IMG/VR virus record: IMGVR_UViG_2695420373_000007
DNA length: 14,555 bases
DNA from: a virus
Taxonomy: Duplodnaviria > Heunggongvirae > Uroviricota > Caudoviricetes
Direction: 5' to 3' (one strand)
Shown piece by piece: positions 1,371 through 7,071 of the stretch. The notes beneath the pieces are model-generated. The model was not told the DNA's origin. It made no database searches and worked only from the letters and a program-made list of their open reading frames with translations. The position numbers and the translations under genes were made by a program. The number at the start of each line of letters is the position of its first letter. Position 1 is the stretch's first letter.

Positions 1371-1447
1371 TGGCGCGTTGTACTGGATTCGAACCAGTGA
1401 CCGATTGCTTAGAAGGCAATTGCTCTGTCCGGCTGAGCTAACAACGC
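1371..1447 (-). tRNA. argO: tRNA-Arg, anticodon UCU (reads AGA/AGG)
   Basis: 77-nt cloverleaf folded by hand from the reverse complement: acceptor GCGTTGT/ACAACGC, D-stem GCTC/GAGC, anticodon stem ATTGC/GCAAT with loop CTTCTAA, T-arm ACTGG-TTCGAAT-CCAGT, 3' GCCA encoded. Symbol is by analogy with the ileZ-argN-argO trio of lambdoid/Stx phages. Confidence 0.85.
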
Positions 1448-1460
1448 ATGATGCAGATAA

Positions 1461-1537
1461 TGGACCGCCATCGGGGACTTGAACCCCGCGCAGCCAGCTT
1501 CGAAGGCTGGCGCTCTATCCCGATGAGCTAATGGCGG
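1461..1537 (-). tRNA. argN: tRNA-Arg, anticodon UCG (reads CGA/CGG)
   Basis: 77-nt cloverleaf: acceptor CCGCCAT/ATGGCGG, D-arm GCTC-ATCGGGATA-GAGC, anticodon stem CCAGC/GCTGG with loop CTTCGAA, T-arm CGGGG-TTCAAGT-CCCCG, 3' TCCA. The C1-G72 pair is unusual but the fold is complete. Symbol by analogy. Confidence 0.75.
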
Positions 1538-1544
1538 TATGTGA

Positions 1545-1620
1545 TGGTGGCCCTTGCTGGATTTGAACCAGCGACCTGGCGATTATGAGTCGCTCGCTCT
1601 CACCACTGAGCTAAAGGGCC
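1545..1620 (-). tRNA. ileZ: tRNA with anticodon CAU; Ile2 (lysidine) type by analogy with phage ileZ, Met elongator not excluded
   Basis: 76-nt cloverleaf: acceptor GGCCCTT/AAGGGCC, D-arm GCTC-AGTGGTGA-GAGC, anticodon loop CTCATAA, T-arm GCTGG-TTCAAAT-CCAGC, 3' ACCA. Sequence resembles the E. coli minor tRNA-Ile as I remember it. Confidence 0.8.
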
Positions 1621-4220: not shown

Positions 4221-5276
4221 TCATGCTTTCCACTTCAGGACACCCGAATTTCTCGCGTGCATTAAAAAACGAATCAGCAACAACAGCTGGCTGCCGTGTT
4301 TTTCTTCAAAATCTTTTACCCCGGCGTGCAGTTCGTTATGACATTTACGGCACAGCGGAATAACAAACAAATCATCAGCCTTTGTTCCCATCCCTCCCAG
4401 TCCATGACCAATGATGTGATGCGGATCATCTGCCTGATTACCGCACGTCATGCATTTCTGCGTTTTTACCCAGCGCGTGTATACAGGCATCTCTTCCCGT
4501 TGTGGTTTCTGGCGCTGGAGATACTGAGCCGGTGACTCCGGATCAACGGCAATGCTGACCACCGTCTTTTCCTGTGGCGGGTTTTGCTGGTGGGCGTGAG
4601 GCAGCAGCGCAAGATTTTTTGTGCGCTGCTTCAGTATGCTGGTGGCGGTCTGCTCTCCCGGTACGATGTCGCTTTCGCGGTACACCGAGCGGATTTTTTC
4701 CGCACGCAATCCCAGAGAACGACGTAATACTGCCTCCGGCAATACGTCCGCTACCTGATTGCAGACCGCCCACCAGGATAATTCAGCCAGCGATAACTCC
4801 CGCTCCTGTGTACCGTTTATTGCGTGGCGGATGACGTCAATCATCCAGGATGTCAGGTTTTGTTGAGCAAGTTGCCCGAGTGATTCGGAGGTCTGGTCGC
4901 GCAGCTGGTTGTCGCAGTGCCAGCACAACACCATTGCGCCGGTACCATAACGGTGAATGACGGTTTCACTGTGGTGATAATCGCCGTGTGGCCACTGGCA
5001 GGATTTAACATGGCGCAGTAACCAGTCAGACAATGCGCCAGCGCCACCAGCAGCACGAATCACTCGTTCGTCGCTGAAAAATGGCAGTAATGATTTATCC
5101 TCCGCCAGCGGCTGGCGAACGGCAGGAACGACCCCGGACGACAGATTACGCATGCTTTTCGGTTCCGGCTCCACCAGTACCCGGGTATTGTGGAATACCG
5201 GCATGGATTCACGGCCCGGCTTAACGATCACCAGCCCGAGTTCCGGTACCAGAACAGGTCGAAGTAATACCCGCAC
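4221..5276 (-). CDS. DUF968-family prophage protein (YdfU-like) with a C-terminal HNH/zinc-binding-like motif
   Basis: 351-aa ORF, GTG start with SD GGAGG 4 nt upstream. C-terminus carries CMTCGN...HHIIGHG...CRKCHNELH (Cys/His cluster). Size and position (between a small protein and rusA/Q) match ydfU of the Qin prophage as I remember it. Confidence 0.6.
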   Translation of the reverse strand: MRVLLRPVLVPELGLVIVKPGRESMPVFHNTRVLVEPEPKSMRNLSSGVVPAVRQPLAEDKSLLPFFSDERVIRAAGGAGALSDWLLRHVKSCQWPHGDYHHSETVIHRYGTGAMVLCWHCDNQLRDQTSESLGQLAQQNLTSWMIDVIRHAINGTQERELSLAELSWWAVCNQVADVLPEAVLRRSLGLRAEKIRSVYRESDIVPGEQTATSILKQRTKNLALLPHAHQQNPPQEKTVVSIAVDPESPAQYLQRQKPQREEMPVYTRWVKTQKCMTCGNQADDPHHIIGHGLGGMGTKADDLFVIPLCRKCHNELHAGVKDFEEKHGSQLLLLIRFLMHARNSGVLKWKA

Positions 5277-5277
5277 G

Positions 5278-5556
5278 TTACCTCCAGATGCGTTGCTGGA
5301 ATGTGCGGGACGGACGCGGTGGGCGTTCAGAGTAAGGAAGCCTGACGGAGATTATCCAGTGACGATAATCGAGGCTGAGGGCTTTCTTAATCCCGTATCC
5401 GTGTCTGCGGTAGCACTGAATTAGCCATTCAGCTTGTTCTTCAGTACATGGGGGATGCTGGTACCAATCAGATTTGAATGTGCGGGAACGCCGCCCGTGC
5501 CTGCTGGCAAAGACAGCTGAATTATCAGAATTGTGTGATTTGGTATTGTGCGCCAT
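5278..5556 (-). CDS. Small hypothetical prophage protein (92 aa), Rem/YbcO position
   Basis: The only ATG in ORF 5278..5637 is at 5554-5556; the annotated TTG 5' end overlaps the upstream terminator hairpin. Stop is 1 nt before the DUF968 start. Confidence 0.45.
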   Translation of the reverse strand: MAHNTKSHNSDNSAVFASRHGRRSRTFKSDWYQHPPCTEEQAEWLIQCYRRHGYGIKKALSLDYRHWIISVRLPYSERPPRPSRTFQQRIWR

Positions 5557-5632
5557 CGTCTTTCTCTGCTGGCGCAGCAGGTGCCAGTTGTTCAGGCTGA
5601 CGTGCGAATTGTAAACCAGAATGCCAGGAAAA

Positions 5633-5655
5633 AACAAAACCCGCCGAAGCGGGTT
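5633..5655 (-). terminator. Terminator hairpin AACCCGC-CGAA-GCGGGTT with flanking T/A runs; copy 1 of a 23-bp repeat
   Basis: 7-bp stem and tetraloop; T-rich on both sides, so potentially bidirectional. Identical 23-mer recurs at 6981-7003. Confidence 0.6.
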
Positions 5656-5956
5656 TTGTCAGTACTGAACATCAAGCTGCGTGCTTGCCACTACAACTGC
5701 AAAGTGGGATCGGGAAAGGCTTCCCTTTTTTCGCGTGGCGCATTACACCATCTACACACACAGAGTAGCGAAAAATGATCTCACATGGACAGCCACATTT
5801 GCGACAGGTACCCATTGCCATGATTTCGTTTTCCCTGCTCACCTGTGAATCCACACAGGTTGCACTTTGTTGGGAGAACCACTACACTTCGCTTGTCTAC
5901 AAAAAGTGTTGTGATTGGATTATCTCCATACACTACGGAATGTGTTAGCGCACTTT

Positions 5957-5983
5957 CCGTCCCTAAAAGCCCTGTTAGCGCAG
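5957..5983 (-). terminator. Hairpin AGCCCTG-N6-CAGGGCT just downstream of the peptidase gene
   Basis: 7-bp stem directly after the stop at 5989. The T-tract is stronger on the plus strand (TTTTACAT) than on the minus strand, so orientation is uncertain. Confidence 0.4.
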
Positions 5984-5988
5984 GGCTT

Positions 5989-6465
5989 TTACATATAAAA
6001 ATCGAACGACATCTGTTGTGTTCTCACGCCAATTGTTTCCAGTACGATATCCGCAAATGTATCTGCCTGCCATTCTGCATCCTCAATACGAGTAGGTTCT
6101 TTAACTGAAAAGTGTAAAACTGCTTTGTGTCCAAGAAGCAAATGACCTAGCTCGTGGAAGATAACAGCAAGTGCATGCTCTTCCCCAAGGCAAGCATTCA
6201 CATATATTTTATTGGGAACCGTAATTGTTAGAGAAGCGGGGTCACAATGTCCGATAGTTAGATCATACGTCAGAGCCTCCCACTCTTTGTCGGTCCTGAC
6301 GTCAAGAGTAACCCCATAAATTGACAGGCTTTCAAAGAACATATCATAACGCTTTCTTTTGCGCTTTGAGGCTGTAAGACCAATAGCATTACAGAAGTTT
6401 ATAGCTCTGTAGGCTATTTCTTCTTCTTGCATCGGTGACACCCTGTTACCTCTCATTTGATACAT
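5989..6465 (-). CDS. ImmA/IrrE-family zinc metallopeptidase (COG2856 / peptidase M78-like)
   Basis: 158-aa ORF with HEXXH in IFHELGHLLLGH. Its SD GAGGGG lies inside the last codons of the upstream HTH gene; the stop of the HTH gene is 2 nt before this ATG, so the two form an operon. Confidence 0.7.
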   Translation of the reverse strand: MYQMRGNRVSPMQEEEIAYRAINFCNAIGLTASKRKRKRYDMFFESLSIYGVTLDVRTDKEWEALTYDLTIGHCDPASLTITVPNKIYVNACLGEEHALAVIFHELGHLLLGHKAVLHFSVKEPTRIEDAEWQADTFADIVLETIGVRTQQMSFDFYM

Positions 6466-6467
6466 AA

Positions 6468-6827
6468 TTACCCCTCATTGTTATTAATCTTTTGCAATAA
6501 ATCTGCAAAACTCTTTAGCTGTTCCGGCGTAAACTGCGACTTAGCGAATCCCGCTACAAGCATTTTCTGTTGCTGAGACAAACCGTTTACTGGAACTGAG
6601 TCATTCGCAACTGCCGCTAACTCCTGTAACCCTTCAATTTCTACACCTTTGGCCTTGAAGTAAGAATCAATCTTCTTAACCCACTTCAGAGGTATTTTTT
6701 TGCTACCAGTTTCTAAACCGCTAAGAAACGCTGGCGTAGTGCCCAGTTCTTGAGACATAGTCAGAAGAGTACTGTCAGTATCGATCCTCGCTTTTCTAAC
6801 GGCCTTACCGAATTCAGTGAGTGCCAT
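6468..6827 (-). CDS. XRE-family helix-turn-helix transcriptional regulator
   Basis: 119-aa ORF; the N-terminal 60 residues have the XRE HTH pattern (KARIDTDSTLLTMSQELGTTPAFLSGLETG). First gene of the operon with the ImmA-like peptidase. Confidence 0.7.
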   Translation of the reverse strand: MALTEFGKAVRKARIDTDSTLLTMSQELGTTPAFLSGLETGSKKIPLKWVKKIDSYFKAKGVEIEGLQELAAVANDSVPVNGLSQQQKMLVAGFAKSQFTPEQLKSFADLLQKINNNEG

Positions 6828-6980
6828 GATTTTATCCTCAATTTGTTGATTTAGCAGACTTGCCTAACGCAAGCCTGATGGGCGCTTAAATTCTAATTCC
6901 TAAAATTTACCATATACGAAAGCAAAGTAAACCTTTTTAGTTAAAAAAATCTCCTTTAAGGGAATTTTTTTCACAAAAAG

Positions 6981-7003
6981 AACAAAACCCGCCGAAGCGG
7001 GTT
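6981..7003 (-). terminator. Terminator hairpin, copy 2 of the 23-bp repeat, downstream of hok
   Basis: Identical 23-mer AACAAAACCCGCCGAAGCGGGTT to 5633-5655; on the minus strand the stem is followed by a T-rich tail. Confidence 0.6.
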
Positions 7004-7071
7004 AAGTGCGGGTGCGTTGAGGATGCCTGACACATCAGAGGTGGCGAGGGATTTCTCCCCCGCCAGGTCTC

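Follow-up and report, generated by a model that had tools for sequence, protein, structure and literature searches.

Background

Gene pairs that code for an XRE-family helix-turn-helix (HTH) protein and a metallopeptidase of the M78/COG2856 (ImmA/IrrE-type) family are among the commonest unexplained two-gene modules of phages and mobile elements, and most of them have no known target. The repressors CapH, DdrO and ImmR are cleaved in their C-terminal dimerisation region after a hydrophobic residue, the cut sites being F82|R83 in CapH (10.1101/2022.04.27.489752) and L106|R107 and F95|M96 in DdrO and ImmR, respectively (PMC6868357), and COG2856-Xre pairs have been predicted to control "a still unknown third component" (PMC2701414). 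Here we describe a pair of this kind in the virus record IMGVR_UViG_2695420373_000007 (Caudoviricetes), a stretch of 14,555 nucleotides that was analysed as a whole and is referred to below as the window; it represents the early-right/nin region of a lambdoid Escherichia coli prophage, read on the minus strand.

As a gene pair this is nothing out of the ordinary, and public genomes already have it annotated: among 5,426 complete E. coli genomes there are 56 in which RefSeq names its members "ImmA/IrrE family metallo-endopeptidase" and "helix-turn-helix domain-containing protein". What is new is the cassette as a whole, with a hidden small gene as its third member and a structured RNA leader in front of that gene. 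An earlier note on this DNA, made from the sequence alone, had described the XRE gene (119 amino acids) and the HEXXH peptidase gene (158 amino acids) as a tight operon in AT-rich surroundings. Both genes are indeed present on the minus strand where it placed them, with 2 nt between the XRE stop codon TAA and the peptidase ATG (…GAGGGGTAATTATG…) and with the Shine-Dalgarno (SD) sequence of the peptidase, GAGGGG, inside the XRE gene, and the GC content is 0.40-0.43 over positions 6000-7000 as compared with 0.50-0.56 in the flanks. The pair therefore stands, but it is not the complete unit: the conserved third gene and the leader in front of it, which occupy 5672-5988, had been left out. We propose that these elements together make up an autonomous three-part prophage cassette (a "moron") that works as a protease-gated repressor switch with the small protein as its output, and we put the probability of this reading at about one half.

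Boundaries and distribution of the cassette

The limits of the cassette are given by an empty site in E. coli EC5502, in which positions 152-606 correspond to window positions 5201-5655 and positions 580-1003 to window positions 6976-7400. The 27 nt that contain the hok terminator occur once in the empty site of EC5502 and are duplicated in the window, where the two copies form direct repeats (Table 1). Because these repeats enclose the XRE gene, the peptidase gene and the small open reading frame (ORF) alike, the three constitute one inserted unit. Thousands of E. coli genomes have hok directly adjoining the Rem-like region, with no module in between.

We compared 53 loci related to this one, all from Gamma- and Betaproteobacteria. 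In 50 of them the XRE gene is immediately followed by that of the peptidase, and in essentially all a small basic ORF recurs on the same strand 150-240 nt downstream of the peptidase gene; no other common flanking gene was found among the 53. The cassette resides in lambdoid, Mu-like and P22-like prophages. Neisseria meningitidis Mu-like prophages carry relatives of it among their tail genes and a Vibrio cholerae prophage between its lysis and portal genes; in Pseudomonas phage H66 a relative adjoins the integrase, in a Pasteurella Mu-like phage it comes after mor, and a Klebsiella phage has the module but no hok. Within E. coli its occurrence is patchy (about 1% of genomes). A 100% identical cassette is found in a prophage with a different immunity region, and a second E. 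coli allele, absent from complete RefSeq genomes, occupies the same hok-rem slot with several immunity types alongside. The cassette is independent of the phage immunity regions and of hok.

In Klebsiella phage ST13-OXA48phi12.4 (L002, 8022-9219) the XRE gene has divergently transcribed neighbours, the genes for a hypothetical protein of 71 aa and for an SppA-like peptidase of family S49; this layout recalls the operons regulated by CapH/CapP, and among the loci examined only this copy displays it.

The distribution bears directly on the lead of the earlier note, according to which the pair could be the missing induction switch of the prophage, the peptidase cleaving its Ala-variant CI-like repressor, or else a regulator of hok. 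The CI-like protein in question (HTH_3 plus Peptidase_S24; 11552-12268, plus strand) reads V-E-G-D-A149-M, with alanine in the place of the S24 nucleophile serine (GDAM as compared with G-[DE]-S-M), and keeps L-K-K-V. It is probably not self-cleaving, and with RecA-stimulated self-cleavage in doubt the prophage may need an antirepressor or some other inducer, a role that would not be foreign to ImmA-type proteases, which control the induction of ICEBs1 and of phage phi105 (PMC6868357). Nevertheless, the identical cassette is found beside a different immunity region, and its relatives accompany many immunity types, or lie far from immunity genes, in unrelated phages. Likewise, hok is absent from most contexts of the cassette, and the insertion site is empty in thousands of hok-bearing E. 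coli prophages. Moreover, the partner XRE protein has a conserved candidate operator of its own within the cassette, with none near cI/cro or hok. We accordingly regard both the induction switch and the control of hok as very improbable; of the roles offered earlier, that of a stand-alone sensor module comes closest to what is observed.

The small third gene

The third gene is not annotated, and its status as a gene was judged from the way in which its copies differ. Among 18 genes of the cysteine-containing type the differences at the first, second and third codon positions number 2177, 2238 and 4252, i.e. the third position has about twice as many as either of the others, and synonymous codon differences amount to 38% in frame as against 9% in shifted frames. 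By this pattern of substitutions the small ORF is coding. Its products of this type are 44-49 aa long, and their five cysteines are invariant.

In about 37 of the loci the small proteins belong to one homologous family, which comes in two forms, one Cys-rich (CxxCxxxC…CxC, the form of the window) and one Cys-less, related to each other with an hhalign probability of 97%. Most of the remaining loci code for a second small basic family with the signature VxVRAYxRxRxGxxExVxxHxRSxP, and no homology of the first family to it was detected. All flavours of the small protein are basic, with isoelectric points (pI) of 9.2-11.6, and one of them gives a sub-threshold hint of an Arm DNA-binding domain. 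The same gene order is seen in the hand-annotated Pseudomonas phage H66, in which gp69 (HTH) and gp68 (160 aa) are followed, after a gap of 196 nt, by the 36-aa gp67 and then a terminator.

The small protein is sparsely catalogued, with two matches in 5.8 billion clusters and 12 credible ones in 1.84 billion representatives. Neither the 49-aa protein nor a 60-aa version of the ORF matched Pfam, NCBIfam, PHROG or PADLOC, and the 49-aa protein matched no fold in the PDB. The link to DUF2188/DUF3892 suggested by Lau et al. was rejected for want of a match, as was YnfU, and the long "repeat" homologs P0191 and P0202 proved to be low-complexity artefacts. An AlphaFold2 (AF2) model, built on a shallow alignment, predicts a five-stranded all-beta protein with a predicted local distance difference test score (pLDDT) of 79, and the protein probably binds zinc.

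In Providencia rustigianii (L003) the leader and the small gene are duplicated in tandem, at 6858-7011 and 7205-7358, and the proteins encoded by the two copies have diverged (MAMGYCPRCKNACEV… in one, MATGYCPKCGSSCEV… in the other).

Two natural variants throw light on the relation of the small gene to its partners. In L045 (6001-6637) the XRE gene is followed by the small gene and the peptidase gene is absent; in L025 (6363-6918) the peptidase is truncated before the HEXXH motif and the small gene begins only 35 nt downstream. These two cases suggest that the XRE gene and the small gene are the indispensable pair of the cassette. The retention of both in loci that have no functional peptidase would also be accommodated by a three-component toxin-antitoxin module, as predicted by Makarova et al. 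2009 (PMC2701414), in which the small protein is a toxin, the XRE protein binds and neutralises it in addition to repressing transcription, and the peptidase destroys the antitoxin. The unusual conservation of the XRE protein, at 60-75% across orders and including a C-terminal domain with no role in DNA binding, points in the same direction, as do the mobility and the patchiness of the cassette. However, a long structured spacer sets the small gene apart, unlike the translational coupling of typical type II modules, and no toxin fold or family was detected for the small protein. Furthermore, two unrelated small-protein families that go with one conserved XRE protein are hard to reconcile with specific protein-protein neutralisation. 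We consider such a module unlikely, and return to the protease-gated switch with the leader that precedes the small gene.

The structured spacer

In Enterobacterales and Rheinheimera the stretch of about 165 nt between the peptidase stop codon and the small ORF contains a conserved structured RNA. RNAalifold finds 32 pairs in it, and 96.6% of the corresponding cells are paired, as compared with 32-50% when the partners are slid. The helices covary: 12 pairs have changed on both sides as against 6.6 ± 1.4 in shuffled alignments, and none of 500 shuffles reaches 12. A covariance model yields 120-155 bits on every sense copy and about 20 bits on the antisense strand, and it recovers three copies of the second E. 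coli allele that lay outside its training set. Rfam 15 has no match to 5822-5988 even at E values up to 10, the only hit being sok (RF01794, 114 bits) upstream of hok. In Vibrio, Pasteurellaceae, Burkholderiales and Neisseria the covariance model gives no significant match; there the spacer is of similar length and of different sequence.

Within this RNA two invariant elements pair with each other, GGUUCUCC (CTCC at 5876-5873) and, upstream of it, AUGGAGG (5927-5924); the former is complementary to the SD sequence of the small ORF as well. Gilliamella and Vibrio have a CUCC or CUCUC element whose pairing partner is the SD sequence itself, and an anti-SD geometry recurs in three lineages. From this pairing we infer a translational gating of the small ORF.

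The first two hairpins carry the same loop of 6-10 nt in 10 of 14 Enterobacterales and Rheinheimera sequences, with L026, L007, L004 and L059-L062 as exceptions. The loop sequence varies from locus to locus (L017, L046, L005 and others), both copies changing and flipping together (TGTTGACGCA versus TGCGTCAACA). Three accounts of these twin loops were tried and rejected. The twin 10-mers of the window do not pair elsewhere in the cassette, as it contains no complementary or further copy; they are not half-sites of the XRE operator, the loops of L002 and L008 (CTAGGA) being unlike it; and they do not co-vary with the small protein, as the window and L008 have near-identical small proteins and different loops. 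A more widespread sequence feature of the spacers is TTGRCR, in either orientation, which is enriched 3.5-fold between the peptidase stop codon and +170 nt in 49 distinct loci (53 occurrences as against 15.0 ± 3.9 after shuffling and 16 in a coding control). Of the 53 occurrences, 24 fall within hairpin loops closed by a perfect stem of 4 bp or more, and the enrichment extends from Enterobacterales to Neisseria, Burkholderiales and phage H66.

Helix H6, at about 25 nt before the small ORF, contains CTGTGTGGATTCACAG (5843-5858, minus strand), which in all Enterobacterales copies fits CTGT-N8-ACAG, a pattern that we take to be the core of the LexA box (SOS box). In Rheinheimera this pattern is absent and the hairpin is kept with a different stem. 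No promoter accompanies CTGT-N8-ACAG, and on these sequence comparisons we lean towards reading H6 as a hairpin and not as a LexA box. As a second XRE operator H6 was rejected, its 10/14 match in the window being at background. No conserved sigma-70 promoter for the small ORF was found in the spacers, and the two promoter-like sites in the spacer of the window are not conserved.

Several of these features would also fit a role of the small protein as a cofactor of the switch, be it that it activates or inhibits the peptidase, as a RapI-like trigger, or that it is a nucleic-acid-binding partner which recognises the TTGRCR loops; the actual targets of the XRE protein would then have to be sought elsewhere, in the genome of the host or of the phage. 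The small protein has a basic, beta-rich make-up, with the hint of an Arm DNA-binding domain in one flavour, the enriched TTGRCR is often found in hairpin loops, and the resemblance of H6 in Enterobacterales to an SOS box means that the small gene could be under separate control. On the other hand, near-identical small proteins coexist with different loops in the window and L008, no conserved promoter for independent expression was found, operator-like sites elsewhere in the window are at background only, and the Rheinheimera copies do without CTGT-N8-ACAG while retaining the hairpin with another stem. A cofactor role hence appears quite unlikely to us as compared with the small protein being the output of the switch.

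Candidate operator, putative promoter and XRE protein

Upstream of the XRE gene we observed an inverted repeat of which copies with at least 11 of 14 matching positions are present in 22 of 32 homologous leaders, as compared with 2% of control windows. It is always located 50-135 nt upstream of the XRE ATG, its right half doubles as the -35 box of a promoter, and it is conserved from Enterobacterales to Burkholderiales and Neisseria. Because the HTH of the XRE protein is invariant, this repeat is likely to be the operator of the XRE protein, to judge from its conservation. The promoter arrangement is shared by the homologs, and the promoter of the window itself falls under the threshold of a consensus scan. 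Elsewhere in the window, including the vicinity of hok and of cI/cro, no operator-like site rises above background.

The earlier note had instead seen a possible autoregulatory operator in a palindrome of the 5' untranslated region (5' UTR), which it placed at 6853-6867, six bases off its actual position. This candidate was rejected: the palindrome lacks the sequence conservation that the inverted repeat over the -35 box does show, and the recognition region of the XRE protein is invariant. Palindromes of 5+5 bases with at most one mismatch are expected 0.64 times per window by chance and were seen three times, which is not significant alone. A 5'-UTR hairpin conserved in position throughout the family was rejected as well, the mean z being -0.25 and 7 of 31 leaders lying below -1.5.

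The XRE protein is conserved at 60-75% identity as far as Vibrio, Pasteurellaceae and Aeromonas, and both its recognition-helix region and its C-terminal block (Table 1) are invariant among homologs. Taken alone, its sequence remains under the Pfam cut-offs (HTH_31, 15.9 versus 27; HTH_3, 13.5 versus 23). The family profile matches ClgR in the PDB (8e-6), the PADLOC profile HTH_VI matches the protein (1e-6), and many of its homologs carry precomputed PF01381 or PF13560 assignments. The XRE-type HTH match anticipated earlier is supported by the family profile and the homologs and not by the Pfam scores of this sequence alone; on the profile evidence the HTH assignment is safe, with formal Pfam membership of the single sequence not reached. 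The segment MLVAGF94-A95KS is situated 25 residues from the C-terminus and, by analogy with the cut sites of ImmR, DdrO and CapH, the XRE protein is predicted to be cut at F94|A95 in this invariant C-terminal segment.

The peptidase

The 158-aa protein matches Pfam PF06114 (Peptidase_M78) with 24.6 bits (E = 2.4e-5) against a gathering cut-off of 22, a narrow margin, and phrog_87 ("metallo-protease") at 7e-17; RefSeq lists the identical protein under the name ImmA/IrrE family metallo-endopeptidase. The HELGH motif noted earlier is found at residues 104-108, and H104, E105 and H108, together with E131-W-Q-A-D135-x-F137, are invariant in 22 homologs, giving a family motif HExxH…E-W-Q-A-D-x-F-A. 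Among solved structures the family profile is closest by sequence to CapP (7t5t, E = 0.015) over residues 86-153 only, with the HExxH and E-x-QAD-x-FA motifs in register. The AF2 model (pLDDT 85.8) shows a single peptidase domain with an N-terminal alpha/beta extension, and the top Foldseek matches in the PDB are PprI (8sln, probability 1.00, template modelling (TM) score 0.50), IrrE (3dti) and the Mycobacterium tuberculosis XRE-COG2856 regulators 6cz6/6cyy, at E values of only about 0.02. By profile, zinc-site motif and modelled fold, the protein is a member of the M78/COG2856 ImmA/IrrE family, as had been anticipated.

RefSeq/PGAP starts the protein at an internal methionine (147 aa; L001, 9090-9533). 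We prefer the 158-aa start because the N-terminus MYQMRGxRV is conserved in the homologs and is preceded by an SD sequence two codons upstream, and the 147-aa call removes this conserved segment.

Some databases label homologs of the peptidase as "toxin" or "toxin-antitoxin system", and a weak, sub-threshold similarity to Lit/Peptidase_U49 was detected, several homologs carrying a precomputed PF10463 assignment. Together with the order and spacing of the two genes, which resemble those of toxin-antitoxin modules, this raises the possibility of a two-gene type II system in which the peptidase is a toxin that cuts a host target in the manner of Lit, the XRE protein is the antitoxin and autorepressor, and the small ORF is incidental. 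Yet COG2856 proteins were non-toxic when overexpressed in Streptococcus pneumoniae or E. coli (PMC4257102), and every characterised XRE/M78 pair acts through its repressor (PMC6868357; 10.1101/2022.04.27.489752). A two-gene system would also leave unexplained the near-universal third gene, its leader and the variants in which the peptidase is lost and its two companions are kept, and we hold it to be improbable.

A model for the cassette

The protease-gated switch that we favour would operate as follows. An XRE dimer sitting on the inverted repeat over the -35 box of the only recognisable promoter of the cassette would keep the whole operon low. Upon a stress signal, which by analogy may be DNA damage, single-stranded DNA or phage infection, the M78 peptidase, which has no GAF domain, would cut the XRE protein in its invariant C-terminal segment, after F94. 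With repression lost, transcription would proceed through the weak hairpin H1 into the leader of about 165 nt, which in turn would gate translation of the third gene, the anti-SD element CUCC pairing either with the upstream decoy GGAG or with the real SD sequence. The output would be the basic, probably zinc-binding beta-protein of 49 aa. Since control is tight at two levels and the small gene is retained with the XRE gene after loss of the peptidase, the small protein is perhaps harmful when freely made, which suggests, for example, a growth-arresting or anti-phage effector.

Several points weigh against this model. H1 resembles a weak terminator, two promoter-like sites lie inside the spacer, and neither a conserved promoter nor a mapped start showing co-transcription of the small ORF was found. 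The operator copy of the window matches at 10 of 14 positions, is assigned by positional homology and does not outscore a few other sites of the window. No homolog of assigned function was detected for the small protein, so that the idea of a harmful effector rests on context and on the two natural variants, and the third slot is filled by at least two apparently unrelated families. On the side of the peptidase, the GAF and linker domains by which CapP and IrrE sense single-stranded DNA are missing, and some COG2856/XRE pairs act with no cleavage (Rir/Crh; PMC6868357).

It is tentatively conceivable that the cassette exemplifies a widespread and hitherto unrecognised class of minimal three-component prophage systems, in which an XRE protein and a single-domain M78 peptidase gate a basic beta-protein of 33-49 aa both at transcription and through an RNA leader, the small protein being a new effector (for instance in abortive infection or growth arrest) and the TTGRCR loops recognition sites. 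In any event, the comparative evidence suggests a testable output for the pair described here, a small protein that is nearly always missed by gene callers, encoded behind an RNA that is absent from Rfam. Were it an effector, the cassette would be among the smallest protease-triggered response modules known, and it would offer a handle on many orphan ImmA/IrrE-HTH pairs in prophages of E. coli, Klebsiella, Neisseria meningitidis, Vibrio cholerae, Pseudomonas and Burkholderia pseudomallei, as well as a reason to seek unannotated small ORFs beside such pairs. The analysis also corrects the annotated start of the peptidase and does away with a link to prophage induction that was tempting but had no support.

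Other features of the window

The coordinates of the cassette and its parts are collected in Table 1. The neighbouring genes agree by profile with those named in the earlier note, namely hok (PF01848, 2.9e-23) on one side and the block of a Rem-like ORF, DUF968, RusA and a DUF1133/Q-like antiterminator on the other. The Rem-like ORF (5278-5637, minus strand) matches phrog_1212, and its homologs carry PF27490 (Rem); here it has 119 aa with a TTG start, as compared with 86-92 aa in the annotation of other genomes, and its start is uncertain. Just upstream of the cassette the hok/sok locus is complete, with hokD at 7072-7284 and the sok RNA at 7222-7396, both on the minus strand.

Downstream of the Q-like gene and of a DNA methyltransferase gene (1661-2719) there are three prophage tRNA genes (1371-1620, minus strand), for Arg-tct, Arg-tcg and a tRNA with a CAT anticodon, the last assigned to Met by ARAGORN and to Ile by RefSeq. 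In the replication region, the protein of ORF 9687-10799 contains a perfect (DKDT)n repeat (…TDKDTDKDTDKDTDKDTDKDTDKE…; about 10260-10330, minus strand), which is likely to be a hot spot of length variation.

Table 1. Coordinates of the cassette, its genes and its sequence elements in the window
Feature	Position	Strand	Description
Inserted three-gene cassette (moron)	5656-6975	minus	promoter/operator, XRE gene, M78 peptidase gene, structured spacer, small ORF; 1.32 kb, from the empty-site comparison
Upstream copy of the 27-bp direct repeat	6976-7002	minus	includes the hairpin of the hok terminator, AACCCGCTTCGGCGGGTT
Downstream copy of the 27-bp direct repeat	5629-5655	minus	in a strong terminator 3' of the small ORF (stem 5660-5633, 12 pairs, then a T run)
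Candidate XRE operator	6945-6927	minus	inverted repeat TTTAACT-AAAAA-GGTTTAC; right half overlaps the -35 box; consensus TTCAACC-N5-GGTTGAA
Putative cassette promoter (inferred)	6904-6931	minus	-35 TTTACT (6931-6926), 16-nt spacer, TGG-extended -10 TAAATT (6909-6904)
Palindrome of the earlier note	6855-6877	minus	9-bp stem, 5-nt loop, in the 5' UTR; CTTGC-N5-GCAAG core at 6859-6873; z = -1.84
XRE-family HTH gene	6827-6468	minus	119 aa; C-terminal motif GLxxxQxMLVAGFAxS invariant
M78/COG2856 (ImmA/IrrE-type) zinc metallopeptidase gene	6465-5989	minus	158 aa; no GAF domain; H104-E105-x-x-H108 and invariant E131-W-Q-A-D-x-F
Conserved structured spacer RNA	5838-5993	minus	six helices; H1 5964-5991, H2 5935-5960, H6 5842-5859
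Twin 10-mer TGCGCTAACA	5973-5982 and 5943-5952	minus	in hairpins H1 and H2, respectively
Decoy GGAG	5924-5927	minus	pairs with anti-SD CTCC at 5873-5876
Unannotated small ORF	5821-5672	minus	49 aa, pI 9.2, five invariant Cys (CxxCxxxC…CxC): MAMGTCRKCGCPCEIIFRYSVCVDGVMRHAKKGKPFPIPLCSCSGKHAA

Comparison with known systems

The DdrO/IrrE (PprI) system of Deinococcus supplies the best structural matches to the peptidase (8sln and 3dti), and its XRE repressor is cleaved near the end of the C-terminal dimerisation domain. It differs in that IrrE has a GAF-like domain, the system is chromosomal and governs a DNA-repair regulon, and irrE and ddrO do not form an operon; the fold similarity itself is limited to an E value of about 0.02 and a TM score of 0.5.

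Among systems with a third component, the Xre-COG2856 toxin-antitoxin systems proposed by Makarova, Wolf and Koonin in 2009 (PMC2701414) correspond in concept to the architecture proposed here, a protease that would cleave the Xre repressor of a third, toxic or uncharacterised component, and are predicted to abound in prophages. Their third components are RelE or PIN toxins and their Xre and COG2856 parts are usually fused, whereas here the two are separate proteins and the third place is taken by a new family of tiny basic proteins behind a structured RNA. PD-lambda-2 (Vassallo et al. 2022, PMC9519451) and RmrA of RosmerTA also contain an Xre-HTH plus M78-type module, in anti-phage systems that have experimental support; in these the HTH and the peptidase are fused, and the partners are HigB and a P4 antitoxin-like protein in the one and RmrT in the other. 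The matches of PADLOC RmrA to our peptidase are weak (E about 1e-3) and restricted to the HExxH region, and PD-lambda-2 was rejected as the identity of the cassette on account of its different architecture.

CapH/CapP, which accompanies cyclic oligonucleotide-based antiphage signalling systems (CBASS) and other defence operons, contains in CapP the best sequence match to the peptidase, the PADLOC capH and capP profiles match the pair weakly, and a logic of repressor, protease and dangerous output would be common to both. CapP, however, consists of a peptidase domain, an HTH-like linker and a GAF domain, and senses single-stranded DNA in a groove between domains, and the protein described here is a single domain of 158 aa. 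Further, capH/capP is always placed upstream of and opposite to the operon that it regulates (10.1101/2022.04.27.489752), whereas the genes of the cassette are co-directional, with nothing divergent among them, and the outputs of CapH/CapP are large known defence systems as opposed to a protein of 35-49 aa.

ImmR/ImmA of the Bacillus subtilis element ICEBs1, and c-phi105/ImmA of phage phi105, have the same build: an HTH repressor followed in one operon by a small single-domain M78/COG2856 peptidase of about 160 aa with neither a GAF nor any other extra sensor domain, on a mobile element, the repressor combining an N-terminal HTH with a C-terminal domain that is cleaved in ImmR. Sequence similarity to the cassette is detectable only in the HTH and the HExxH region. 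The distinction lies in what is controlled, ImmR/ImmA being the immunity and excision switch of its own element over a divergent excision and transfer operon, whereas the cassette, inserted at the hok terminator, is cargo unrelated to the immunity, excision or induction of its prophage, and its likely target is the small gene downstream on the same strand. The cassette would thus work in the manner of ImmR/ImmA and CapH/CapP, but we file it under neither, as it departs from CapH/CapP in two features, domain architecture and divergence, and from ImmR/ImmA in one.

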